NCBI GenBank assembly: GCA_963837315.1
Contig: CAWINE010000028.1
Coordinates: forward strand, 470,462 to 534,461
Reading direction: 5' to 3'
Length of the DNA stretch: 64,000 nt
Source of the DNA: an uncultured Chloroflexia bacterium
Lineage (GTDB): Bacteria; Chloroflexota; Chloroflexia; QHBQ01; JADMIH01
This document shows positions 822 through 22,678 of this stretch, piece by piece. Numbering within the stretch: the stretch's first letter is position 1; every line of letters begins with the position of its first letter. The position numbers were made by a program, and so were the translations under genes. The notes below the pieces were generated by a model, which searched no databases, had not been told where the DNA came from, and worked only from the letters and a program-made list of their open reading frames with translations.

Positions 822-1973
822 ATGAATGCTGACGTGGTGATAGTGGGCGCGGGAATTATCGGCTCTTCTTGCGCGTATTTTCTTGCGCGCTCGGGCCTCA
901 AGGTGTGCGTGGTAGAGCGGGCGGGCCTGGCCGGCGGCACTTCAGGTTCGGGCGAGGGGAATATCCTCGTCTCCGATAAGGACCCTGGCCCTGAGCTGGA
1001 TCTCGCCAGGATGGGCTGCACGCTCTGGAAGCAATTGGCCGAGGAGCTATCCTACGACTTCGAGTTCGAGGAAAAGGGCGGCCTGGTTGTCGCTGAGACC
1101 GAAAGTCACCTTCAATCTCTCCATCGGAGGGTCTCAGAGCTGCAAGCCGAAGGCGTAGAAGCGTCGATGCTGGATGATGCGGGTATGCGTGAAGCTGAGC
1201 CAAACATGGCTCGCGACCTGGCGGGCGCAGCCTGGTTCCCCCAGGACTGCCAGGTGCAGCCGATGTTGGCCTGCGCCGCGTTGATGAAAGCAGCTATATC
1301 GGCAGGCGCGACCCTGCTCGACCACACCGAGGTAGTCGCTATCGAGCGCGACCACACAGGCGCTATCTGTGTCGTGAGCACCACACAAGGCAACAACATA
1401 AGCAACATAAGCACCCCGCGGGTAGTGAACGCAGCAGGTCCGTGGAGCCGGATGGTGGCGGCCATGGTAGACTATGATCTGCCTGTGCTGCCGCGTAAAG
1501 GGCATATCGTTGTAACCGAGCCACTCCCCAAACTTGTGCACCACAAAGTATGGGAGGCCAGCTACACGGATGCGGTGAACAGCAACGAGGCCGCCACCCA
1601 GGTCGCATCGGTAGTAGAGGGCACGCAAAGCGGCACAATCCTGCTTGGTAGCAGCCGCCAGCTTGTGGGCTTCGATCCCACCATAGAGGTAGAAGTCGTG
1701 CGAGCCATCGCCGCGAGAGCCGTGCGCTACTTCCCTTTCCTGGCCTCCGTACACGCCCTGAGGGCCTATGTCGGCTTCCGTCCGTTCTCTCCCGACCATC
1801 TTCCCATCATAGGCGAAGTAGAAGAGGTGCCCGGCTTCTTCGTAAATACGGGCCATGAAGGAGCCGGCATAGGCACCGGTCCAATCTGCAGCCAATTGCT
1901 GGCCCAAACGATTCTTGGTGAAACACCTGCCCTCGATATGACGCCGTTTCGAGCGGGTAGGTGGGAAGATTAA
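822..1973 (+). CDS. FAD-dependent oxidoreductase, DAO family (candidate D-hydroxyproline dehydrogenase beta subunit, LhpB-like)
   Basis: 383-aa ORF with an N-terminal dinucleotide-binding motif VVIVGAGIIGSSCAYFLARSG. It is the first gene of a same-strand cluster with proline-racemase-family, DapA-family, 2Fe-2S and FAD subunit genes. Confidence 0.8.
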   Translation: MNADVVIVGAGIIGSSCAYFLARSGLKVCVVERAGLAGGTSGSGEGNILVSDKDPGPELDLARMGCTLWKQLAEELSYDFEFEEKGGLVVAETESHLQSLHRRVSELQAEGVEASMLDDAGMREAEPNMARDLAGAAWFPQDCQVQPMLACAALMKAAISAGATLLDHTEVVAIERDHTGAICVVSTTQGNNISNISTPRVVNAAGPWSRMVAAMVDYDLPVLPRKGHIVVTEPLPKLVHHKVWEASYTDAVNSNEAATQVASVVEGTQSGTILLGSSRQLVGFDPTIEVEVVRAIAARAVRYFPFLASVHALRAYVGFRPFSPDHLPIIGEVEEVPGFFVNTGHEGAGIGTGPICSQLLAQTILGETPALDMTPFRAGRWED

Positions 1974-1982
1974 GGAGCAGCT

Positions 1983-2990
1983 ATGCGCTTCGATAAACTA
2001 ATCACAGCGGTGGATTCGCACACGGAAGGGATGCCCACGCGGGTCGTGACGAGCGGGTTCGGGGTGATACCGGGCGCGACTATGTTCGACAAGAAGGTGT
2101 TCGTGGAAACCCACCTGGACCACCTGCGAACGCTCCTTATGTTTGAGCCTCGCGGGCACGGTTCGATGTCGGGCTCGATTTTGCTGCCCCCTACCGACCC
2201 CGATGCCGACCTGGGTGTGGTCTTTATCGAGGTCAGCGGTTGCCTCCCTATGTGCGGGCATGGCACCATCGGCACGGTGACGGTTGCCATCGAAACCGGG
2301 CTTATTCCTGCCGTTGAGCCTATTACGACTGTCAAGCTTGACACGCCCGCAGGCCGCGTGGTCGCGGAGGCGACTGTGCAGGATGGGCGCGTGAAGAAGG
2401 TGAAGATTCGCAACGTGCCGGCGTTCCTCTACAAGAAGGACGCTGTCGTTGATGTGCCGGGGCTGGGCGAGGTGCAGCTTGATATCGCTTACGGGGGCAA
2501 CTTCTACGGCATCCTGCCCGTGGAGGAGGCGGGCCTCACCCTGGAGAAGCGCCACGTGCCTGAGCTAATCTCCACGGGCATGAAGATTATGCATGCCGTG
2601 GAAGAGCAGGTGCCGCTGCAGCACCCGCTGGAAGCACGTATCTCGGAGATAAAGCACACCCTCTTTACCGGACCCGCCGACGTGCCTGGTGCGGACGCCA
2701 AGAACGCTGTGATGATCTACCCCGGCACCCTCGACCGCTCGCCCTGCGGCACCGGCACGAGCGCCAGGATGGCTCAGATGTACGCACGAGGTCTGCTCGA
2801 CCTCAACCAGGACTTCGTTCACGAAAGCATCGCAGGGACGTGCTTCACGGGTAGGCTGGTAGAGAAGGTGCAGTTAACGCCGGAAGTGGAGGCAGTTGTG
2901 CCCACTATCGAAGGTCGAGCCTGGATTACCGGCTTCCAGCAGTTCGTACTGGACCCGGACGACCCGTTTCCAGCGGGGTTTCTGCTTTGA
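1983..2990 (+). CDS. proline racemase family protein, candidate 4-hydroxyproline 2-epimerase
   Basis: 335 aa with family hallmarks DSHTEGMPTRVV. A catalytic Cys pair sits in PMCGHGTIG and DRSPCGTGTSARMA. The start is 10 nt after the upstream stop. Confidence 0.85.
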   Translation: MRFDKLITAVDSHTEGMPTRVVTSGFGVIPGATMFDKKVFVETHLDHLRTLLMFEPRGHGSMSGSILLPPTDPDADLGVVFIEVSGCLPMCGHGTIGTVTVAIETGLIPAVEPITTVKLDTPAGRVVAEATVQDGRVKKVKIRNVPAFLYKKDAVVDVPGLGEVQLDIAYGGNFYGILPVEEAGLTLEKRHVPELISTGMKIMHAVEEQVPLQHPLEARISEIKHTLFTGPADVPGADAKNAVMIYPGTLDRSPCGTGTSARMAQMYARGLLDLNQDFVHESIAGTCFTGRLVEKVQLTPEVEAVVPTIEGRAWITGFQQFVLDPDDPFPAGFLL

Positions 2991-3106
2991 CCGTCGGCCA
3001 CCAGCCCACGATAGTCCCGGGCATCAATGGTAAAGTATATCGTAACATCTGAGATGGGAACGCCTTTCGTCTACCCGATCATCACTGTCTAAAGGAGCAC
3101 CACGCA

Positions 3107-3482
3107 ATGTCTTCGACAGAACAGGAGCTAATCCCTTTATATCACCGGTGGATGGAAGCCGTTCAGCAAAAGGATATGGTTGCGCTTGCGCAGAATTCTC
3201 GGTGAGGAGTATACCTACACGGCAAGCAACCAGGGACATTGGTCCCGGCAAGAGTGGCTGGACCAGGTCGCCATCTACAACATACAATCGCTCGAGTTTC
3301 CAAGCATTGAGGTGCGGACCTATGGCGAGGCGGCAGTGGCTCTGGTCGAGTGCAGGCAAGTGGCGACCTATGCAGGAGCCCAGCGCAGCGGAGACTTTTT
3401 GATCACGGATGCGTGGGTGCACAGGGACGGCCCCTGGCAGGTGGTGGCTCGCAGCTCAATTCTGGCCGCAGCCCGGACCTAA
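3107..3482 (+). pseudogene. SnoaL-like/DUF4440 (NTF2-fold) protein, frameshifted
   Basis: SD AAAGGAG precedes ATG 3107, giving MSSTEQELIPLYHRWMEAVQQKDMVALAQ. A stop follows at 3203-3205. The natural continuation (ILGEEYTYTASNQGHWSRQEWLDQV...DAWVHRDGPWQVVARS) lies in the frame of ORF 3180-3482. One frameshift lies near 3180-3200. Confidence 0.55.
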
Positions 3483-4912: not shown

Positions 4913-6326
4913 AGTCGCTATAGTCGGGGCTGGGCCGGCAGGCTTATCCGCCGCCTATGCCGCTTCGCGGGCGGGCTGCAGAGTTACACTGGTGGATAGC
5001 TATGCGCGGGCGGGCGGGCAATACTACAAGCAGATGCCCGCTCAGTTTCGCGCCAAATCGCCCGGCTCGCTGCATCACGAGTTTGCCCGAGCGGAGAGGC
5101 TCTTCTCGGCTTTGCAGAGAGATAGCAACGTTACTACCCTCACAGGCACTACTGTCTGGTCGGCTCGGGCGTCCACCTCTGACGATGCTGTAACCCTTTA
5201 TCTGGATAGCGGTGATAAGAGCAGCGAACTGGCTGCGCGGAAGGTGGTGCTTGCGCCCGGTGCGTACGATCGCGCTCTGCCTTTCCCCGGCTGGGACCTG
5301 CCCGGCGTGATGACGGCGGGCGCGATGCAGACGCTGGTAAAGAGCCAGCGAGTGCTGCCGGGACGCCGGATCGTGCTGTCAGGGTCGGGTCCATTCCTGA
5401 TGCCGGTGGCTGCGGCGCTGGCCCAGGCGGGGGCCCAGGTGCTTGGCGTCTATGAGGCCACGCGCCCGCGCCAATGGGTGCGCCACGCCTTGCAAGCGTG
5501 GGGCCACTGGGACAAGCTGCGCGAGGCACAGGGCTATCTGGGCATTTTGAGGAAGCACCGGGTGCCAGTGGAGTTCGGGCGTGCCGTAATCCGTGCCGAA
5601 GGCGAAGGGCAGGTAAGGAGCGCGGTGGTAGCGCGTCTCAAAGCCGATTGGTCGCCTATCGCCGGGAGCGAGCAATTCATCGACGTGGACTCCGTGGGCG
5701 TCGGCTACGGCTTTGTTCCTTCGACCGAGCTGGCAAACCTGCTCGGTTGCGCCCACCAATATGACACGTTGCAGGCTGGCTTCTTCGTAAAGCACGATGA
5801 CGCCATGGAGAGCAGCCGCAAGGGCATCTTCGTGGCCGGCGAGATAACCGGTATCGGTGGATCGGCGGTAGCGCGCCTGCAGGGAGCAATCGCAGGCCTG
5901 GCAGCGGCTCACCGGCTAGGGCATTTGAGCGCCGAGCGAGCGCGAGCAGCTATAGCTCCGCGCCGGAAAGAGCTACAGCACCAGCAGTCGTTTGCCAGGC
6001 TGCTGCATCGACTGTACGCAGTGCAACCTGGTTGGAGGGAATGGCTGACGCCGGAAACCACCGTCTGCCGCTGTGAAGAAGTGATCTACGCCAAAGTGGA
6101 AGAAGCGATCAACCAATTCGGTGCAAGCGACGTCAAGACCGTGAAGAGTCTCACGCGCTGCGGTATGGGTCTCTGCCAGGGCCGCATCTGCGGCCCCAAC
6201 GTCGCCGCTATCACCACCGCTCTGAGTGGTCGACCTCCTGAAGAGGTTGGCACGCTCTCAACCCGTCCGATCGTCAAGCCCATAAGCCTCGCCGCCCTGG
6301 CGAGCACCAACCAACCTGATATGTAA
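4890..6326 (+). CDS. FAD/NAD(P)-binding oxidoreductase alpha subunit with BFD-like [2Fe-2S] domain (LhpE / opine oxidase A-like)
   Basis: ATG 4890 overlaps the upstream stop. It carries the Rossmann motif VAIVGAGPAGLSAAYAASRAG, a second nucleotide site VLSGSGPF, and a C-terminal CRCEEV...TRCGMGLCQGRIC motif. Confidence 0.8.
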   Translation: MRMAPETEVAIVGAGPAGLSAAYAASRAGCRVTLVDSYARAGGQYYKQMPAQFRAKSPGSLHHEFARAERLFSALQRDSNVTTLTGTTVWSARASTSDDAVTLYLDSGDKSSELAARKVVLAPGAYDRALPFPGWDLPGVMTAGAMQTLVKSQRVLPGRRIVLSGSGPFLMPVAAALAQAGAQVLGVYEATRPRQWVRHALQAWGHWDKLREAQGYLGILRKHRVPVEFGRAVIRAEGEGQVRSAVVARLKADWSPIAGSEQFIDVDSVGVGYGFVPSTELANLLGCAHQYDTLQAGFFVKHDDAMESSRKGIFVAGEITGIGGSAVARLQGAIAGLAAAHRLGHLSAERARAAIAPRRKELQHQQSFARLLHRLYAVQPGWREWLTPETTVCRCEEVIYAKVEEAINQFGASDVKTVKSLTRCGMGLCQGRICGPNVAAITTALSGRPPEEVGTLSTRPIVKPISLAALASTNQPDM

Positions 6327-8532: not shown

Positions 8533-9084
8533 ATGCTAGCCGAAAACGGAAAGAACGCAGCAAACCTGGCAGGTGACAATAGCGAGAGGATAGAGCCGCG
8601 CCCTAACCTTAGCCTCATCGTGAGCGAAGACGACGGCAGGCGAATTCGCCGCCAGCTTGACCGCATGATCATGGAGGCCGGGGCCAGCACCACCATGCTG
8701 CTCGACAAGAGCGGCGAGGTTATCTCGGCGCGTGGCGACCAGTTGCCGAAAGACCTGGACGTGATGGGTGCCTTGCTGGCGGGCACATTCGCGACCTCAC
8801 GAGAGATTGCGCGCATGAGGGAGGAAAGCGAATTTCATACGTTGCTCCAGCAGGGCTCGTTGGAGAATACGCTGACCGAGCTTGTGGGGGAGTCGTGGCT
8901 GATATCGGTCATTTTCGGCAAGAGCACCCATGTGGGCCTGGTGCGCGACCTCACCCGGCAGATAACGCCGGAGCTAGAGGCTGTGCTGCTGCAAGTGCAG
9001 CGCCGCAGCCGCAATATGTCGGGTCTGAACCCGTCGTTCCGCACCTCCGTAGAGGATACGATTGACCTATTGTTTAAAGACTGA
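8533..9084 (+). CDS. mglB: Roadblock/LC7 domain protein, MglB-like GTPase-activating partner
   Basis: 183 aa with a Roadblock-like core (STTMLLDKSGEVISARGD...LLAGTFATSREIA...WLISVIF). It lies directly upstream of mglA on the same strand. Confidence 0.65.
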   Translation: MLAENGKNAANLAGDNSERIEPRPNLSLIVSEDDGRRIRRQLDRMIMEAGASTTMLLDKSGEVISARGDQLPKDLDVMGALLAGTFATSREIARMREESEFHTLLQQGSLENTLTELVGESWLISVIFGKSTHVGLVRDLTRQITPELEAVLLQVQRRSRNMSGLNPSFRTSVEDTIDLLFKD

Positions 9085-9089
9085 GGAGA

Positions 9090-9236
9090 CCAAGTTGTCA
9101 GTTGTCAGTTGTCAGTAGACGGACGACCGACAACCGACTAAGGCTGATAGCTGAACGCTACGGTCTACTGACAATAGTTCGCTTCGCTCATCAACTGACA
9201 ACTGACAACTGACAACTTGGTCACAAACTGACAACT
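9090..9236. repeat. nested heptamer-arm hairpins (GTTGTCA / TGACAAC runs) between mglB and mglA
   Basis: ccaagttgtcagttgtcagttgtcagtagac (9090-9120) pairs with gtctactgacaa (9163-9174) and with caactgacaactgacaactgacaacttgg (9192-9220). The element fills the mglB-mglA spacer. Confidence 0.85.
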
Positions 9237-14637: not shown

Positions 14638-15057
14638 CTACTCTGCGTAGGCCTGATCCTCACCTGCTGCGCTGTAGCCAATATTCCAGATGTAGCCGTC
14701 AGGGTCCGCGAAGGACCCGCCGTACCCGCCCCACTGGAGCTTAGCCGCGGGCTTGAGGATCTTCCCGCCTGCCTTCCTGGCCTCGTCCAGGATCTCCTCG
14801 ACGCGTGCTTCGCTGCGCACGACGTAATTGAAGACGACGCCACTGAAACCGCTGCCGTCGCCCTCGGGGCTGGCCCCCACCATGTCGGCCAAGCCCTCGC
14901 GGCCATAGAAGCCGACGAGCGAGCCGCCGTGGGGAACGAAGAAGACCGAGATCTTGTAGTCGCTCTGGACCTTCCAGCCGAGACCGTCCACGTAGAAGCG
15001 CTTCGATCGCTCCATGTCCTTGACGCCAAGCAGGATTGCGCTAACGTGCGAGTTCAT
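14638..15057 (-). CDS. VOC (glyoxalase/bleomycin-resistance/dioxygenase) family protein
   Basis: 139 aa with a typical VOC pattern (ILLGVKDMERSKRFYVDGLGW ... FADPDGYIWNI). Confidence 0.8.
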   Translation of the reverse strand: MNSHVSAILLGVKDMERSKRFYVDGLGWKVQSDYKISVFFVPHGGSLVGFYGREGLADMVGASPEGDGSGFSGVVFNYVVRSEARVEEILDEARKAGGKILKPAAKLQWGGYGGSFADPDGYIWNIGYSAAGEDQAYAE

Positions 15058-15074
15058 GATTGGTTCCTCCTACT

Positions 15075-15572
15075 TCATCGAATTGGGTGGAGCTCGAAGA
15101 CACGTCGGCCTTTGGCAGCTGCCACAGGATGGTTGAGATCGACCCCATCGACAAGGCGAATGAACAAGGCACCGCCCGGTATGCTTCGCGCCGCAGGGCC
15201 AAGAAAGTCGCGAAAGAACTCAACTCGCTGTGCCGGGTCCAGCTCGGTCGCGCGCACTTCTTCTGTCCGGTGGCGCGTGGTGATGGTCGCGCTGCCGGCT
15301 GCACGTAGATTGCGCACCCATTGGACCTCGCCCCATGGTGCCCAGACCCAACGCCTGCCTGAGGCCCTGATGACCGCCAGAGGCGTGGTGCGAGGCAGAC
15401 CGCTTTTCCGCCCGCGAATGGTTACGAGCCGATTGGGGCCAAGGGGGACGCCATGCACCAACAGGAACTTGAGGATCGAACCGAAGAACAAGACACGCCG
15501 CGGCGCGACGGCGGCGTTGGTGGCGTCGGCGGAACTGGCATGGCTACCTGAGCTGCCAATTCGATCAGTCAT
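15075..15572 (-). CDS. nitroreductase/quinone-reductase family (DUF385) deazaflavin-dependent oxidoreductase
   Basis: 165 aa containing LVTIRGRKSGLPRTTPLAV...WVRNLRAAGSATI, characteristic of the DUF385 / F420H2-dependent reductase family. SD AAGGAG precedes the ATG. Confidence 0.7.
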   Translation of the reverse strand: MTDRIGSSGSHASSADATNAAVAPRRVLFFGSILKFLLVHGVPLGPNRLVTIRGRKSGLPRTTPLAVIRASGRRWVWAPWGEVQWVRNLRAAGSATITTRHRTEEVRATELDPAQRVEFFRDFLGPAARSIPGGALFIRLVDGVDLNHPVAAAKGRRVFELHPIR

Positions 15573-16116
15573 TCTGTAGCTCCTTTTTCTGTTGATATTC
15601 CATTTGAATCATGGTATCAGAACTACCCAACGGAGAGGGCCCGCAAGACCTGTGCCACATCGATACGACAACCCGCTAGTTTGCTCGGGGGTTGAGTAGA
15701 TCTCTGCGATACAACGACCTAGTTTCTCGACAGGTGTTGCGAGCATCTGCGCCTCAGGGCAAAAAGCGCTCGGCTCCTGATCACGTCTTATGCATCCTCC
15801 TTGGCGATGGGCCATGAGGTGAGGTGTCCCCCTTTGTCGCCCAATTCGGGAACTTCAATACCCTGTAGGCCGAGCAGCAATGCAATTGGTTGCTGCCCCC
15901 TCTAACTTTGAGTTGCACAGGTTGATATCTGAACCAACCTGCACCTATTTACACCGGCACACATGCGGGTTGATGATATACCTGGCCCGAGCGCTGATGG
16001 GAGCAGGGCTAGCCGCTGCGCGCGGAGTGCCGAATTGGGTGGTTAATGGGACTGCTTGCAGGTGGTGTTACAACTCCTTCTGCTCTGTTGATAGGGGAAA
16101 GTGTCAGGATCACCTG

Positions 16117-17172
16117 TTAGCCACTGCATCTCAGCTTTGCCGACTTCCTCATGCTCGCAGGTGCCTTGCTGCTCGCCGCCGTATCAAATTTCAGGCAATT
16201 GATAATACTATTTTCAACAGTATCGCTCAGGGCGTGTTCTGTGTAATAGGCGGTGTGCGGAGTAATAAGCACATTCGGGTATTTTGCTAACTGCAACAAC
16301 GATTTGTTTTCAATGGGTTTGTTTCTGCAGTCCGCGTAGAATATTCCCTCCTCTCCTTCGAGGACATCCAACGCCGCGCCGCCTAGTTTGCCGCTTTCCA
16401 ACGCCAAAATAAGCGCCGCGGTATCAAGAAGTGAACCGCGTCCAGTATTGATAATAAACGCGCCGCGCTTCAGTTGCTCGATACGTTGACGATTTAAGAG
16501 ATGGTGTGTCTCCGCGTTAAGTGGTGTATGGAGCGTTACAATATCGCTCTGCTGTAACAATTCATCAAGAGGAACGTAATCGGAGTTCGCTTCGCTCATG
16601 GTTTTGGGACGATGGTCACAGGCTAATATACGGCAGCCAAAACCCCGCAGCCTGTCTATAACTGCTGCGCCAATGCGTCCTGTTCCAATTACCCCAATGG
16701 TCATATCGCGTAATTCTTTCCCGCGTACATCATTCAATCTGAAGTCATGCACATCTACACGGCTGATAATGGATTTTGCATTGCGCACCGCCATCAGCAT
16801 CAGCATTAGTGTGTAATCAGCCACGCTATCGGGTGAATATGCGATATTTTCAACGGAAATGCCAACGCTCTCTGCGTATTTCACATTGATATGGTTATAT
16901 CCAATGCTTCTTGTGGAGATATACATGACGCCGGCCTGGCTAAGGGCGAGAAGAATGCAATCTGTGACTTGAGTTTTATGACTGACGCTGATGCATCGAT
17001 TTCCAAATGCCAGTCCAATATTAGCTTCAGATACCGCTGCATCAGTGATAGTTGGCGTAACGCCAAAGCGAGGCGCCACCTCTCGGAACAGAACGGCCTC
17101 GTCCTGTCCGCATCCATAAATTGTAATTCCCATTTTGCGGGCCGCTGTTCGTGCTGGTTCGCTGTAGGTCAT
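16117..17172 (-). CDS. vanH: D-specific alpha-keto acid (pyruvate) reductase VanH; the likely true start is the internal ATG at 17133
   Basis: The product is collinear with VanH: GITIYGCGQDEA, YISTRSIGYNHI, AYSPDSVADYTLMLMLMAVRN, GVIGTGRIGAAVIDRLRGFGC, GKLGGAALDVLEGEE and ITPHTAYYTE. The first 13 codons are homologous to the non-coding leader of the ligase gene. The last ~14 codons are antisense to a vanS-like fragment. Confidence 0.9.
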   Translation of the reverse strand: MTYSEPARTAARKMGITIYGCGQDEAVLFREVAPRFGVTPTITDAAVSEANIGLAFGNRCISVSHKTQVTDCILLALSQAGVMYISTRSIGYNHINVKYAESVGISVENIAYSPDSVADYTLMLMLMAVRNAKSIISRVDVHDFRLNDVRGKELRDMTIGVIGTGRIGAAVIDRLRGFGCRILACDHRPKTMSEANSDYVPLDELLQQSDIVTLHTPLNAETHHLLNRQRIEQLKRGAFIINTGRGSLLDTAALILALESGKLGGAALDVLEGEEGIFYADCRNKPIENKSLLQLAKYPNVLITPHTAYYTEHALSDTVENSIINCLKFDTAASSKAPASMRKSAKLRCSG

Positions 17173-17255
17173 GCCTCCAGTCTAGGCAGCATGGTGTTGC
17201 CGGCACGTATGTGGTTTTCGATATCTTGACGATATGCGCCAGCTCGTATCATGTC
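17145..17255. promoter_or_regulatory. copy 1 of the duplicated bidirectional van control region (between vanH and murF)
   Basis: About 100 bp are near-identical to 20612-20715. The shared core is cctccagtct.gg..gc.tggtgttgccggcacgtatgtggttttcgatat...gacgatatgc. It includes CGATATCT / CGATATGC direct repeats 11 bp apart (17219-17237) and a TATCAT -10-like box. Confidence 0.7.
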
Positions 17256-17448
17256 GGTGGCAAGACCGGTACGACGCTCATCTCAATCCCAACCGGTTAT
17301 GCGCTCGACTCGACCATCGCCTCGCCCGGATCATAGTCGGGCTTTGCGCCGGTCGAGGATCCCGCCTTCATCATGCTGGTGAAAATCGGATCAGCCAATA
17401 GATGAGCGAAGCGAACTACTTCGCTCATCGACCCGCTGGGAGGACGAT

Positions 17449-18960
17449 GTGTTCACAATCGACGACGTACGCAATGCGCTGAGCGACTGCCTGAAAGGGG
17501 AGCGTCCCGGCGCCGCCGGCGAGTTCACCGGTGTAACCAACAACTCCCGCGTGGCGAAGCCGGGCGAACTCTTCGTCGCACTCACCACCCCAACCGGTTA
17601 TGCGCTCGAGGTGCGAGACGGCCACGACTTCATCAGCGATGCTGTGGCACACGGCGCGACGGGCGTCATCGTCCACAATGAGGAAGTCCTGCTGCCGGAC
17701 CACGTCTGGGCCTTCCTGGTTGACGATACGAAGCACGCCATCGGCGAGCTAGCCCGCGCCTGGCGATCGCGCTTCGACGTTCGTGCTATCGCCATCGCCG
17801 GCAACGTCGGCAAGACGACGACGAAGGATCTGACGGCGGCCGTGCTGCAGGGCTGCGGCCACACTGTGCTCAAGAGCCCCATGAACTTCAACGATGAGAT
17901 CGGTCTGGCCATGACCCTGCTCCAGTTGGACCCAACCTATGCGGGCGCAACTCTCTCGGAAGATCACAGCTCATTGAGCGGACGGCGAGCTCGCGGCCCA
18001 GAGCGCACCACCGCTCCGTCCTTCGTCCTCCGGCCAACCGGAAGATCACGAGCATATGACCGGGCCGTGGTGGAGGTCGGCATGTTCGAGCTAGGTGAAA
18101 TCCGCCGCCTCTGCCAAATTGCGCAGCCGCAGATCGGCGTCGTGCTCAACGTCGGCCCGACGCACCTCGAACGCCTCGGCAGCATGCAGGCGATCGCGGA
18201 GGCAAAGTCAGAGGCCGTGCAGGATCTCCCCGCCACGGGCTGCGCCATCCTCAACGCGGACGACCCCATGGTGGCAGCCATGTCGCCGAAGACGCGAGCG
18301 CGGGTGCTGACCTTCGGAGTCGGGACGCACTCGCAGGCGGACTTTCGCGCGTCCGAGATCCAGAGCCACGGTCTGGCCGGCGTGGAGTTCACGCTTGGCT
18401 GCCTCGACCGCAGCCTTCGGGTAAGGAGTCCGCTGCCCGGTGCCGACCTCGTGCCCAACGCGCTCGCCGCGCTCGCCGTCGCGGTGGCGGACGGCGCCAG
18501 CGTCGAGGAGGCGGCCCAAGCGCTGACCTGTGCTCAGGTTAAGCCTCGGCTCCAGGCGAAGATGGCAGCCGGCGGCGCCACGATCCTGGACGATTCCTAC
18601 AATGCCAACCCGGCCTCGATGATGGCGGCACTGGACGTGTTGCGCGAGATGACGGGCCACCGCTACGCCCTGCTCGGCGACATGCTGGAGCTGGGCTCGG
18701 CGGAGACGGACGGGCATCGCTCCGTCGGCGAGCACGCCGCCCGCATCGTCGATGCGCTGTTCACGGTCGGGCCGCGCGGCGTGCAGATCGCAGCGGCGGC
18801 CAGGGCGGCGGGCGCCCGCACCGTTTGCCACTTCGATACGAAGGAAGAGGCTGTCGAGGTACTACGCGCCAACCTGGGCCCAGGCGACGTGCTGCTGGTC
18901 AAGGCCTCGCACGGCCTGGCCCTCGGCACCATAGTGGCGGAGCTCACCAGTTATATGTGA
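17449..18960 (+). CDS. murF: UDP-N-acetylmuramoyl-tripeptide--D-alanyl-D-alanine (or D-Ala-D-Lac) ligase MurF
   Basis: 503 aa from a GTG start 4 nt after GGGAGGA. MurF motifs are present: NSRVAKPGELFVAL, DGHDFI, IAIAGNVGKTTTKD, VVEVGMFELGEI, NVGPTHLERLGS, ILDDSYNANPASM and LLVKASHG. It is GC3-rich, unlike the flanking vanH and vanX. It carries two apparent in-frame insertions. Confidence 0.9.
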   Translation: MFTIDDVRNALSDCLKGERPGAAGEFTGVTNNSRVAKPGELFVALTTPTGYALEVRDGHDFISDAVAHGATGVIVHNEEVLLPDHVWAFLVDDTKHAIGELARAWRSRFDVRAIAIAGNVGKTTTKDLTAAVLQGCGHTVLKSPMNFNDEIGLAMTLLQLDPTYAGATLSEDHSSLSGRRARGPERTTAPSFVLRPTGRSRAYDRAVVEVGMFELGEIRRLCQIAQPQIGVVLNVGPTHLERLGSMQAIAEAKSEAVQDLPATGCAILNADDPMVAAMSPKTRARVLTFGVGTHSQADFRASEIQSHGLAGVEFTLGCLDRSLRVRSPLPGADLVPNALAALAVAVADGASVEEAAQALTCAQVKPRLQAKMAAGGATILDDSYNANPASMMAALDVLREMTGHRYALLGDMLELGSAETDGHRSVGEHAARIVDALFTVGPRGVQIAAAARAAGARTVCHFDTKEEAVEVLRANLGPGDVLLVKASHGLALGTIVAELTSYM

Positions 18961-19561
18961 TGGGTAAGTCAAAATATGTGTCCGGATAAGGTTCGTGTTT
19001 CAGTGTGTAATGCCACCACTCGCAATCGTATGAATTAAAACCGCAGTCCTCCATGATAGAACAAAGGTATTGACGGTTTCTCGCTTCGACTTGCGTGATT
19101 CCTTTTGCTCCATGATGTGAGATTGGATCCATCAAATCAAAGTCACCGCCCATTGGAGCAAGTTCACCGGTAGCCAGATGATAAAGCGTCAAGTCAACTG
19201 TGCTGCCCCGACTGTGGCCCGACTTAGCGGCCACATATCCTTTTTCAAACATCTCGGATCTGTCAATATTCGGATAGTGTCTTAGTTTCGTCCGGCCATC
19301 CTCCGGCTGTTTTGACCAGCGCAGAAAGCAATCTACGGCGCGTTGAGGGCGATAACCATCCCAAAGAAGCAAGCCAAAGCCAAGGGATGCGGCCTTTTCT
19401 CGCGCTCTTTCCAGGGCTGCGCACAAAGCCCTCGTACCGACAATTCGATTTGCCACATATCCGTCCACCGGTTTGCCGGTAAAGTTATCCCATGTGGCGT
19501 ACTTAGCATCCCAACGTATTCCGGATACAAACTCGTCTACAAAGACAAAATCATCTTTCAT
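18944..19561 (-). CDS. vanX: D-Ala-D-Ala dipeptidase VanX
   Basis: 205 aa with IRWDAKYATWDNFTGKPVDGY, LLLWDGYRP, SGHSRGSTVDLTL and DCEWWHYTL (zinc ligands and catalytic residues of the VanX family). Its start overlaps the ligase stop (ATGA). Confidence 0.92.
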   Translation of the reverse strand: MKDDFVFVDEFVSGIRWDAKYATWDNFTGKPVDGYVANRIVGTRALCAALERAREKAASLGFGLLLWDGYRPQRAVDCFLRWSKQPEDGRTKLRHYPNIDRSEMFEKGYVAAKSGHSRGSTVDLTLYHLATGELAPMGGDFDLMDPISHHGAKGITQVEARNRQYLCSIMEDCGFNSYDCEWWHYTLKHEPYPDTYFDLPITYNW

Positions 19562-20598
19562 CGCCGGTTTCCTGTCAATGTCAACGACACAATCCGGTCG
19601 ATCACTTCGGCCAACGGCAACCCTGCGGCTGCCATCATTCTCGGATAACGGCTGTATGAGGTCATACCAGGCAAAGTATTAACCTCGTTAAGGATCACTT
19701 TTCCATCTTCCTTCAGGAACATATCAACCCGCGAAAGTCCCCTGCATCCCAGGGCGCGATATAGGGCCTTTGCTGTCTCCTGAACGAGCAAGCGCGCCTC
19801 TGCCGAAATGTCAGCGGGAACGATTGCTGTTGAGTTTTCGGAACCGCTTTCAGGCTCACTCTCCTGATGGATTCTGAAAAAACCATGAGATAGAGAGATT
19901 CGATCTACCTCGCCTGCAATCAAATCCCTATCGTTCCCCAATATCGCACACCCCACCTCGCTGCCGACGACAGCCTCTTCAATCAACACCTTCGAGTCAT
20001 ACTGTCTTGCGGTTTCCACCGCACTGAGCAATTCTTCTTTTCGAGATACTTTACTGACGCCGAAAGATGAACCCGAACGGGCCGGCTTCACAAAGACGGG
20101 ATAAGTAAGCCGGTCGGGATCAATATTCTCGTTCGCCGCGACAGTCCAGAAATTCGGCGTAGCAATTCCCGCGCTTCTAGCGACGATGTAAGCAAGGGAT
20201 TTGTCCATACACAGAGCAGAACTTTGGACATCGCAGCCCACATAGGGGATGCCGGAAAGCTCCAACAAACCTTGCATCGCGCCATCCTCGCCAAGTTTGC
20301 CATGCAGAACGGGAAACACCATATCCAAACGGATCGTTTCGTATTGTCCCTGCTCCAGAACAAGCAATCCGTGGACGCTTCTGTCCGGTGACAGCGCAGC
20401 CGGACGGCAACTGCCGTTTTCCCAATTTGCATCAGGGCCGTCACAAAGCTTCCAAGCGCCGCTCTTCGTAATCCCGATATAGAACGGTTCATACTTTTCG
20501 ATATCCAGGTTTTTTGCGACCTCTTGCGCAGATTTAACGGAGATGGGATGTTCTTCGGAACAGCCACCGAATATAATTCCGATCTTCAACCTATCCAT
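19558..20598 (-). CDS. vanA: D-alanine--(R)-lactate ligase, VanA/VanB type (allele not assignable by eye)
   Basis: 346 aa, near-collinear with VanA/VanB: IIFGGCSEEHPISVKSA, EKYEPFYIGITKSGAWKLC, FPVLHGKLGEDGAMQGLLELSGIPYVGCDVQSSALCMDKSLAY, YPVFVKPARSGSSFGV, GSENSTAIVPADIS and NEVNTLPGMTSYSRYPRMMAAAG. SD GGAAG lies upstream. Confidence 0.92.
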   Translation of the reverse strand: MDRLKIGIIFGGCSEEHPISVKSAQEVAKNLDIEKYEPFYIGITKSGAWKLCDGPDANWENGSCRPAALSPDRSVHGLLVLEQGQYETIRLDMVFPVLHGKLGEDGAMQGLLELSGIPYVGCDVQSSALCMDKSLAYIVARSAGIATPNFWTVAANENIDPDRLTYPVFVKPARSGSSFGVSKVSRKEELLSAVETARQYDSKVLIEEAVVGSEVGCAILGNDRDLIAGEVDRISLSHGFFRIHQESEPESGSENSTAIVPADISAEARLLVQETAKALYRALGCRGLSRVDMFLKEDGKVILNEVNTLPGMTSYSRYPRMMAAAGLPLAEVIDRIVSLTLTGNRR

Positions 20599-20611
20599 GC
20601 TGCTTTCTTCC

Positions 20612-20724
20612 TTTCAAACTGGTTCGCTCATGTCCTGCCTCCAGTCTGGGCCGCGTGGTGTTGCCGGCACGTATGTGGTTTTCGATATGCCGACGATATG
20701 CTACCCGCTGGTATAATCGAGAGT
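20612..20724. promoter_or_regulatory. copy 2 of the van control region: divergent ligase/vanR promoters with a candidate response-regulator site
   Basis: CGATATGC direct repeats at 20683-20690 and 20694-20701 are spaced 11 bp and overlap the -35 position. TATAAT lies at 20712-20717, 7 nt before the vanR ATG (leaderless geometry). The palindrome TGCCGGCA lies at 20661-20668. Confidence 0.6.
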
Positions 20725-21420
20725 ATGCGTGTGTTGATCGTCGAGGACGAACCCTATATGGCAGAAGCCATCCGCGATGGCCTACGCCTGGCAGCGATCG
20801 CCGCCGACATCGCCGGTGACGGCGACACCGCTCTGGAGCTGCTGAGCATCAACGCCTACGACATCGCCGTCCTCGACCGCGATATCCCCGGCCCCTCCGG
20901 CGACGAGATCGCCAAACGCATCGTCGCCTCCGGCAGCGGCATGCCTATCCTCATGCTCACCGCTGCCAACCGGCTCGATGACAAGGCCACCGGGTTCGAG
21001 CTCGGCGCCGACGACTACCTCACGAAGCCGTTCGCACTCCAGGAACTCGTGCTCCGTCTCAGAGCACTCGACCGCAGGCGGGCCCACAACAGGCCGCCCG
21101 TGCGAGAGATCGCAGGCCTGCGTCTGGATCCGTTCCGCCGCGAGGTCTACCGCGACGGCCGCTACGTCGCGCTCACCCGGAAGCAGTTCGCAGTGCTCGA
21201 AGTCCTCGGCGCTGCCGAAGGCGGAGTCGTCAGCGCCGAGGAGCTACTGGAACGGGCATGGGATGAGAACGCAGACCCGTTCACCAACGCCGTGCGCATC
21301 ACGGTCTCGGGACTGCGCAAACGGCTCGGCGAACCCTGGATCATCGCCACCGTGGCCGGCGTCGGGTACCGCATCGACACTCAACCAGACACCGGGCGTG
21401 AGGAAGGAGACCGTGGATAG
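20725..21420 (+). CDS. vanR: OmpR-family response regulator VanR
   Basis: 231 aa with a receiver domain (MRVLIVEDEP...VLDRDIPGPSGDEI...ILMLTA) and a winged-helix domain (LTRKQFAVLEVL...VRITVSGLRKRLG...GVGYRI). It lies divergent from the ligase and is followed by a sensor kinase. Confidence 0.85.
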   Translation: MRVLIVEDEPYMAEAIRDGLRLAAIAADIAGDGDTALELLSINAYDIAVLDRDIPGPSGDEIAKRIVASGSGMPILMLTAANRLDDKATGFELGADDYLTKPFALQELVLRLRALDRRRAHNRPPVREIAGLRLDPFRREVYRDGRYVALTRKQFAVLEVLGAAEGGVVSAEELLERAWDENADPFTNAVRITVSGLRKRLGEPWIIATVAGVGYRIDTQPDTGREEGDRG

Positions 21421-22516
21421 AGCCCCTGGTTTGAGTGTTCGCCTCAAACTCACCCTCAGCTACGCCGGCTTCCTCATGCTCGCAGGTGCCTTGCTACTCG
21501 CCGTCGTGTGGGTGTTCCTGCTGCGTTACGTACCCGACCGTCCGATCATCGCACTCGGGTTCGTTCCCAACCGTTCCGACCTCCTGGACGCTTTCGCTCC
21601 GAGGGCAGCCGCAATGGTGGCGTTCTTGCTGGTGTTCGGTCTCCTGGGAGGGTGGCTTCTCGCCGGCCGCATGCTCGCCCCCTGACTCGCATCACAGACG
21701 CCACACGCATGGCCGCGAACGGATCGCTTTCCCACCGGATCGAGTTGGAAGGCCGTCAGGACGAGTTCCGCGAACTCGCCGACAGCTTTGATGCCATGCT
21801 CGCACGGCTCGAAGCCCATGTCGCCGAACAGCAGAGATTCGCAGCCAACGCCTCCCACGAGCTGCGCACCCCGCTGGCGATCACGCAGACACTTCTTGAC
21901 GTGGCCCGCAACGATCCGAACCGTGACACCGGCGAACTCGTCGAGCGCCTCCACGCCGTCAACACCCGAGCGATCGACCTCACTGAAGCATTGCTCCTGC
22001 TCAGCCGCGCCGACCAACGGTCCTTCACCCGAGAACACGTCGACCTGTCCCTCATAGCGGAAGAAGCCACTGAAACGCTCCTCCCTCTCGCAGAAAAACG
22101 CGGCCTCACCATCGAGACCTCCGGCGACATAACCCCCACCATCGGCTCGCACGCGCTACTGCTGCAGATGACCACGAACCTCGTGCAGAACGCGATCGTC
22201 CACAATCTGCCTACATGGCACCGTGTGGGTCACGACCAGCATTCACCCCAAGCGTGTGGTGCTCACTGTCGAGAACACCGGTGAGAAGCTCACCCCACAT
22301 TTAGTTTCCACGCTTGTCGAGCCGTTTCAACGCGGCACCAAGCGAATACGCACCACACCCGCAAGCGGGTACCCGGCAGGTGTCGGCCTCGGCCTGGCAA
22401 TCGTCAAAAGCATCACCCAGGCACACGACGGGACCCTCACTCTCACCCCACGGGCCGCTGGGGGGCTCCGCGTCACGGTGCAGCTACCCGCAGCGCCACC
22501 GCACGCTGGCAGATGA
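21413..22516 (+). pseudogene. vanS: sensor histidine kinase VanS-type, two frameshifts
   Basis: A GTG start overlaps the vanR stop. The TM1-loop-TM2 region ends at a stop at 21685, in a C5 run. HAMP, the H-box (ANASHELRTPL) and the N-box (NLVQNAIVHN) continue in the frame of ORF 21508-22284. The G-boxes (VENTGEKL..GLGLAIVKSI) lie in the frame of ORF 22223-22516. Confidence 0.8.
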
Positions 22517-22678
22517 CGATCAAGGGAAGGCATCTGATGAGCTCGAAGCGGCCAGGCAGTGCCGCCGCCAACAGATTTGTGCTACGATGAGGTGAAAACT
22601 CTCACTTTCTTAGCACGACTTTGCACATTTCCAACCGAATAGGCTATGGCTAGAACCCAACAACAGACGGAGTAGGCG

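Follow-up and report, generated by a model that had tools for sequence, protein, structure and literature searches.

The gene for the D-lactate dehydrogenase VanH in the van cluster of an uncultured soil bacterium of the Chloroflexia ends in a piece of another gene of the same cluster. The cluster lies in a 64,000-nucleotide stretch of assembly GCA_963837315.1 (contig CAWINE010000028.1, positions 470,462 to 534,461 of the forward strand); we call this whole stretch the window and give all coordinates in it. The last 16-22 codons of vanH, a minus-strand gene, are an inverted piece of vanS, the sensor kinase gene. At this site the extreme 3' end of vanH has genuinely recombined with a fragment of the vanS 5' end that lies in the opposite orientation.

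The 3' end of vanH is an inverted fragment of vanS

The fragment, which we call S', is seen as a direct repeat on the plus strand: positions 16130-16182 and 21455-21507 agree in 48 of 53 bases (91%), with a 27-nucleotide (nt) core that matches exactly. The earlier note on this DNA had placed the match at 16132-16183 against vanS 21455-21505, with about 5 mismatches in 52, and the alignment reproduces it almost to the base. When a 39-nt core of S' was searched for with up to three mismatches, only two sites were found in the window, S' itself and vanS, and none of 100 dinucleotide-preserving shuffles gave a match. S' corresponds in register to vanS nt 43-95, coding for the first transmembrane segment (TM1), and an alignment that took in vanS from three loci and eight S'-type vanH tails bears this out; identity between S' and some 20 other vanS genes is 80-92%. 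In relatives the fragment continues as a vanRS operon would, into the 3' end of vanR at one locus (L178) and with the promoter at another (L084).

Read antisense by vanH, S' supplies a C-terminal tail at residues ~331-347. The translation of the open reading frame (ORF) 16117-17172 agrees with the note in ending on the antisense fragment; the protein terminates in ...NCLKFDTAASSKAPASMRKSAKLRCSG*. The junction lies at 16183/16184, and the sequence common to relatives there is AAATTTGA followed directly by TACGGCGGCGAG... Homology to other VanH proteins had been said to stop after NCLKFD, and it does: the canonical protein continues straight after NCLKF with FE(S/R)RNQHG. Sequence comparison points to transfer from vanS to vanH, the TM1 sequence being conserved in ~20 vanS genes that lie next to a vanH with a normal end. 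A simple inversion can be set aside: breaking at the vanH end and at vanS nt 95, it would have brought vanS nt 96, not nt 95, up against vanH.

The features needed in what follows are these.

16117-17172, minus strand: vanH, for the D-lactate dehydrogenase VanH, 351 residues as the longest ORF (NF000492, 547.8 bits, cutoff 540)
16130-16182, plus strand: S', copy of vanS nt 43-95 (repeat comparison, shuffles, alignment)
16087-16129, plus strand: probable, badly diverged rest of the vanS 5' end, nt 1-42 (from its spacing and from the relatives L176, of genome G015, and L178)
16037-16129: conserved flank downstream of the vanH stop, shared with L001, L164 and L167
17137-17253: P1, putative VanR-type two-way promoter cassette between vanH and murF, 90% identical to P2
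17449-18960, plus strand: murF paralogue, divergent from vanH (TIGR01143, 354 bits)
18944-19561, minus strand: vanX (profile search)
19558-20598, minus strand: D-Ala-D-Lac ligase gene, VanI/VanA-Sc/VanO-like (profile search)
20599-20618, minus strand: remnant of a canonical vanH, its last ~7 codons (TTTGAAAGGAAGAAAGCAGC), before the ligase ATG; 26 of 27 nt equal the vanH 3' end of L003
20619-20717: P2, another copy of the cassette seen in P1, between the ligase and vanR genes, 90% identical to P1
20725-21420, plus strand: vanR, VanR-O-like response regulator (NF033118, 461 bits, below the cutoff of 505)
21413-22516, plus strand: vanS, VanS-O-like, the source type of S', with a GTG start at 21413

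The junction is shared by diverged relatives

For comparison we used contigs that matched the tail, 160 further vanH loci and one same-genus genome with vanH (of 24), and drew the closest VanH proteins from a set of 5.8 billion. These closest proteins share the tail (for example DTAASSKAPASMRNPA, DAAASSKVPASIRKRA and DTPASSKVTASIRKPVQLRCSG), and more distant ones end in FE(S/R)RNQHG. The vanH/S' junction was found at the same nucleotide in at least 11 independent metagenome or genome contigs of 78-92% DNA identity and in four different gene contexts; the carriers are L084, L165, L166, L001, L164, L167, L168, L169, L176 (G015) and L178, and proteins P0006, P0010 and P0040 carry it as well. The note's reading of the site as a recombination junction holds. 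All tailed orthologs carry vanS-like DNA, the tail itself being vanS-like DNA, so that the observation with which the note would have given up its claim, a tail conserved in orthologs without the vanS match, was not made. Chance similarity or a chimeric assembly has next to no probability. In its favour, the genome is a draft of 28 contigs at 84% completeness and the cluster contains repeats; yet chance yielded nothing in the 100 shuffles, and the identical junction comes from independent assemblies (JGI, ENA, Logan and GTDB genomes).

Several relatives preserve more of the neighbouring operon than the window does. In L178, ~12 nt from the 3' end of vanR survive together with vanS nt 1-95, which has lost 10 nt internally, and an insertion sequence (IS) fragment comes next. 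G015, the only other same-genus genome with van genes, keeps vanS nt 1-95 behind vanH and has the junction without P1 in front of vanH. The closest relative is L084, 91-95% identical at the nucleotide level over murF-P-vanH (P being any copy of the promoter cassette); here vanS nt 21-95 is joined directly to another P copy, vanR is deleted, and an ORF starting MTYSEPARTAARRTRSTILAAS stands behind that P copy at the contig end. L168 (78%) has the same layout, with murF on the minus strand, P, vanH, a decayed scar, P and a membrane-protein gene; the N terminus of that membrane protein resembles a VanY-like gene (PF02557) found directly after murF-P in the Chloroflexia metagenome-assembled genome (MAG) L066. 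L001, L164 and L167 are orthologous solo-vanH loci that adjoin a RibD_C-like gene. Their homology with the window covers 16037-17251, so the scar and ~90 nt beyond it are included. The window thus combines the tail-side flank of L001, L164 and L167 with the murF side of L084 and L165.

In the window and in L001, L164 and L167, vanS nt 43-95 is clear and the flank before it aligns poorly with vanS. Comparison with G015 and L178 suggests that 16087-16129 is probably a decayed copy of vanS nt 1-42, and it holds the last four vanH codons and the stop: GTTGATAG lies at 16087-16094, 43 nt before CTCAGC, and in vanS GTGGATAG lies 42 nt before CTCAGC. The flank 16037-16129 by itself is 80-82% identical to those three loci, and homology ends at ~16037. 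With this 92-nt flank as query, blastn and tblastx searches of the whole genome and of all loci matched only L001, L164 and L167. Left of 16130, the window was also aligned in pairs (MAFFT and local alignment) with P1, P2, the 3' end of vanR and the flank of L084; judged by shuffles, homology to vanR-vanS was not significant there.

A few other loci deserve mention here. Apparent full-length tail matches in L014, L051, L063, L065, L086, L087 and L162 were rejected as tblastn read-through into the ligase frame. In the Bacillota MAG L002, at 8950-9140, ~150 nt are inserted between NCLKFEQRHS and a canonical ERRKQHG vanH end; as a tailed relative this locus was set aside, its insertion at the vanH/ligase boundary being unrelated. 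In L178 an rve_3 fragment (IS3-type integrase core, 1060-1308) lies directly past the vanS'-vanR remnant, downstream of vanH. In L176 (contig C73 of G015, 1626-3416) a vanX without stop runs through a GNAT-like N-terminal fragment and the 3' part of the long vanH leader into vanH, as one fused ORF of 596 residues; the order is vanR-P-ligase-vanX-vanH/S', with no murF between.

The junction predates this genome

We built a maximum-likelihood tree of 169 VanH cores. It places 11 of the 12 S'-tailed sequences in one group (support 87 by the Shimodaira-Hasegawa-like approximate likelihood ratio test, not starred), which also holds P0003, a protein with the vanR-derived tail (R') described below; the S'-tailed L168 falls outside. 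The S' label needs two changes on the tree, and 5 of 500 shuffles were as clustered. A single origin of the S' tail is thus allowed by the tree, and not shown by it. Since the same nucleotide junction recurs across relatives of 78-92% identity, the comparisons indicate that it is old and inherited and predates the split of the whole vanH clade.

This bears directly on the second part of the note, which held that vanH had changed place in this genome as a segment bounded by the scar (16183) on one side and by the promoter copy (17255) on the other. In favour of it, the two repeats do exist and are similarly diverged from their partners (91% and 90%), and vanH is indeed out of its canonical place. 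The relatives nevertheless contradict a move in this genome, which we regard as very improbable: they have the junction in four contexts and, at 78-92% identity, are not one and the same strain, and the block conserved with L001, L164 and L167, 16037-17251, contains the scar rather than ending at it. Because G015 has the vanH/vanS' junction without P1, the two brackets differ in age. Promoter copies are, moreover, general in these clusters, with three in L144.

Promoter cassettes and the junction before the ligase gene

P is a 70- to 115-nt element and a predicted promoter, whose copies sit upstream of vanH, ligase, murF, mltG-like and vanY-like genes; copies of P1 itself occur in L144, L066 and L084. 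P1 carries the leader "MTYSEPARTAAR" and a direct repeat, CGATAT-N5-CGATAT. A direct hexamer repeat is of the kind expected for an OmpR-family regulator. The leader belongs to the promoter cassette, and the true VanH start is probably M14. The start of a short ORF in the cassette is conserved (M-T/N-Y-S/R-E-P/S-A/P-R...) in the window at 17137-17172, in L066 at 14952, in L168 at ~2680 and in L144 at ~2920, and is fused in frame to whichever gene follows: vanH, a VanY-like gene, an mltG-like gene or a membrane-protein gene. It could be a leader peptide or merely a conserved 5' untranslated region.

A second junction lies before the ligase gene, at 20618/20619. Upstream of the ligase, the P2 leader (...AGCGAACCAG) is joined to TTTGAAAGGAAGAAAGCAGC-ATG, which is the canonical vanH 3' end, and this remnant carries the ligase ribosome-binding site (RBS). 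The same junction between P2 leader and TTTGAAAGGAAGAAAGCAGC-ATG is found in L144 and G015. The motif TTTGA is retained twice, once where the vanH body ends and once where the remnant begins, as a 5-nt duplication that flanks the regulatory copy proposed below to have been inserted.

A sister junction with vanR

In L144, L147, L106, L108 and L177, the VanH body ends at the identical nucleotide and then continues into antisense vanR, nt ~58-1, which adds an R' tail of seven residues (ERMASAR or ERMAFAG). The R' type resembles the S' type in its breakpoint and in having an antisense piece of the regulatory operon and a promoter copy behind vanH; it differs in the partner, vanR nt ~58-1 as against vanS nt 95-1. 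In L144 the order is vanS and vanR (both minus strand), P, an mltG-like gene, vanH, the vanR' piece (in the region 5254-5521), ~105 nt, a P copy, a leader' and the ligase gene, and beyond the ligase gene vanX, a murG-like gene and murF on the minus strand with a third P copy. In L144 and L147 the vanR'-P insert is flanked by the duplicated 5 nt, with a TTTGA-type remnant before the ligase gene. L177 has its R' tail in a murF-P-vanH context 90-95% identical to the window.

Proposed origin of the scar

We propose that the regulatory region was copied in between vanH and the ligase gene and that promoter copies later recombined, and we give this explanation a probability of about 65%. The junction, its recurrence among relatives, the vanH 3' remnant before the ligase gene and the P copies that relatives have beside S' are observed; from them we infer in which order things happened and by what mechanism of recombination. 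In an ancestor of the vanH clade, vanS nt 1-95, vanR, P and the first ~16 nt of the leader would have been copied and pasted in opposite orientation into the tight vanH/ligase overlap (AAATTTGA followed by AAGGAG..ATG), possibly when replication switched template twice, leaving and rejoining the original at points separated by 5 nt. S' would be the surviving end of that copy. The vanHAX operon would thereby have been split: vanH would have kept its own promoter and gained an antisense-vanS tail, and ligase-vanX would have gained a private promoter copy while keeping the last seven vanH codons with the RBS. Three breakpoints would coincide, as the canonical vanH ends inside the ligase RBS and only ~5 nt would spare both the last VanH helix and the RBS.

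Promoter copies in direct orientation could then have recombined and excised a circle, [P-vanH-S'-vanR], leaving vanR-P-ligase-vanX, the right half of the window. Were the circle to integrate at the promoter of murF, the product would be murF-P-vanH/S'-(vanR)-P-vanY, which is the left half of the window; the layout of L084 and L168 is thus the expected product of such an integration. The present order, S'/vanH, P1, murF, vanX, ligase, P2, vanR, vanS, would result, and the redundant vanR-vanS' remnant would have eroded differently in each lineage.

Deletion without any insertion could account for part of this. An ancestor with vanH-ligase-vanX and a convergent vanS-vanR would lose the DNA from the vanH end to vanS nt 96; in detail, one copy of the cluster (after duplication or a second acquisition) would lose the ligase gene, vanX and most of vanS, and the other would lose vanH. 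The ancestral layout assumed here, vanH-ligase-vanX converging on vanS-vanR, is the commonest among the 160 mapped loci, and one deletion would orient vanS nt 95 against the vanH end with vanR and P beyond, as in L178 and L084. Two independent deletions would, however, have to end within the same 5 nt (TTTGA), which nothing in this model constrains, and L144 is left unexplained, where vanH and the ligase gene have nothing but the vanR'-P insert between them. We consider deletion alone unlikely.

Several points weigh against insertion followed by promoter recombination. The first-stage S' arrangement, vanH/S'-vanR-P-ligase, occurs in no single contig, L144 showing the vanR' variant only. The L084 ORF behind the P copy breaks off after 28 codons and may encode a VanY-like protein or a second VanH. 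No significant match to P, vanR or vanS was obtained with the 92-nt flank 16037-16129. Finally, the S' and R' junctions share the identical vanH nucleotide, and L177 (R') is as close to the window as L084 (S'); the coincidence needs either two independent events or an exchange of tails by recombination. We would account for it by selection, arguing that an insert at any other site would damage either the fold of VanH or the RBS of the ligase gene.

The tail varies without constraint

Variability was compared by codon position in seven close sequences. The 16 tail codons have 7, 4 and 7 variable sites at first, second and third positions, and the last 100 codons of the vanH body 18, 15 and 39; the tail varies overall at 37%, against 39% at third positions of the body. 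Tails ending in "PA*" terminate at a TAG that is the antisense of a vanS Tyr codon. This TAG is mutated in the window and in L001, where the ORF is six codons longer (seven with the codon that replaces the stop). AlphaFold confidence (predicted local distance difference test, pLDDT) is below 50 at VanH residues 337-351 and 1-11, so that the tail is predicted to be disordered. The last helix of the model spans residues 312-335, and solved D-lactate dehydrogenase chains align to ~residue 326-343. The absent codon-position bias, the pLDDT below 50 and the varying stop position together indicate a tail that is translated but unconstrained and that appears to evolve neutrally.

We also weighed a functional scar, in which the 3' end of the vanH mRNA acts antisense to the vanS 5' coding region or the tail alters VanH, and find it highly doubtful. 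The RNAs would be complementary over 53 nt (47-48 matched pairs), with a predicted duplex energy of -110.7 kcal/mol, and the tail is in frame in all relatives. Against this, the complementary stretch varies as third codon positions do, unlike what an antisense regulator would call for, and it has decayed to ~60% identity in L168 and L169; L001 is a solo-vanH locus whose contig, 7 kb of it, lacks vanS; the vanS of the window has two frameshifts; and the tail is predicted to be disordered. Nor was a structured RNA or terminator found: Rfam over 15000-22600 gave no match at E <= 1 and there was no tRNA, no terminator-like site was found, and the vanH 3' region folds no better than shuffles (z = 0.5). 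That the vanS-derived end is kept for pairing with vanS mRNA, so that vanH induction would feed back on the sensor kinase, is equally hard to credit; if true, a scar of rearrangement would have given rise to an antisense regulator. The scar is old, inherited and apparently without function of its own.

Gene content and acquisition of the cluster

The enzyme itself appears sound. VanH passes the NF000492 (vanH_gen) cutoff with a match over residues 16-330; its NAD-binding motif G163-T-G-R-I-G168 and the catalytic residues R245, E274 and H306 are invariant among 19 homologues, and its fold matches D-lactate dehydrogenase structures at E = 3e-58. By these sequence criteria the product is a VanH D-lactate dehydrogenase with an intact core, residues 14-330. 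For annotation, the 351-residue VanH includes ~13 leader and 21 tail codons outside the enzyme.

The ligase passes the NCBIfam VanI cutoff (707.6 bits against 700). The cluster is not a canonical vanHAX operon: vanH lies 1.8 kb beyond vanX, with murF on the opposite strand between them, whereas canonical vanH-ligase-vanX was found in all 80 species-representative GTDB genomes that a protein search brought up and in most metagenome loci. The murF product is 78-86% identical to those of L066, L144 and L084. At 17947-18054, murF has ~108 nt extra compared with murF of L084, L165, L177, L144 and L066, and blast alignments of the gene all break at 17946/18055.

The vanS gene of this cluster is broken and vanR is intact. 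Two deletions shift the vanS frame, one of 1 nt at ~21677 (in a C6 run, C5 here) and one of 2 nt at ~22212 by comparison with three relatives (CTGCCT--ACATGG here, CTGCCTGAACAGGG in L144, L066 and L089). The latter is no homopolymer error. Some 178 codons, the HisKA region included, are out of frame.

Composition and identity point to horizontal acquisition of vanH, the ligase gene and vanX. Their DNA (16184-17136 and 18954-20618) is 86-94% identical to Bacillota and Actinomycetota versions, among the former Candidatus Formimonas warabiya and Syntrophomonas MAGs; their GC content is 47-53% in a genome of 58%; and van genes occur in only one of 24 same-genus genomes. The murF and vanRS genes differ in composition, at 63-70% GC. 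At 15779-15890 on the minus strand lies the 3' fragment of a DinB-like gene, its last ~36 codons (...GLQGIEVPELGDKGGHLTSWPIAKEDA*), of which full copies stand elsewhere in the genome (C8 at ~36.6 kb, C11 at ~78.1 kb); the truncation at ~15890 is probably where the acquired van region begins on the left.

Relation to known van systems

In Streptomyces, several VanR-dependent promoters are the usual arrangement. In Streptomyces coelicolor, as Hong et al. reportedly showed in 2004, one vanRS pair drives several transcription units through a repeated promoter type; the regulon reportedly includes murF-like and other cell-wall genes, with vanHAX as one operon. The window differs in that vanHAX is split and in that promoter copies in this family carry pieces of vanR or vanS dragged along with them.

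The vanI cluster of Desulfitobacterium hafniense has murF inside it (vanXmurFvanKWARS) and its vanH elsewhere on the chromosome, with no junction described (Kruse et al. 2014, PMC4229326). The window shares the murF within the cluster and a ligase that passes the VanI cutoff; unlike in D. hafniense, vanH stays in the cluster, with its own predicted VanR-type promoter and a vanS-derived tail. Ktedonobacteria, which are soil bacteria, have rearranged van loci with murF and VanY-type carboxypeptidase genes, including a vanH-vanA fusion in Ktedonobacter sp. SOSP1-52; these loci keep vanH and vanA adjacent and tend to lose vanX, and no tail derived from vanS or vanR is reported for them (Andreo-Vidal et al. 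2022, PMC9689679). They share with the window a place outside the Actinobacteria, a rearranged order, murF and oddities at the vanH/vanA boundary, and their VanH ends in FERRPSCLGTPPSTKMVI. A limited search of the literature gave no report of antisense vanS or vanR tails on vanH, or of promoter copies with such fragments.

We conclude that this cluster, an unusual variant of a known resistance cluster, carries in the junction an ordinary and apparently non-functional molecular fossil. The fossil shows how a tightly coupled vanHAX operon can be dismantled: the promoter of the regulator itself, copied along with bits of vanR or vanS, would have been inserted at the one spot where neither flanking gene is harmed, and recombination at the repeated promoters may then have shuffled modules of vanH, ligase-vanX, murF and VanY-like genes. 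The case bears on the view, quoted in two papers, that vanHAX is mobile and evolves as one unit (PMC4229326, PMC9689679) and on why clusters such as vanI are without vanH, and is of modest interest for the evolution of van operons.

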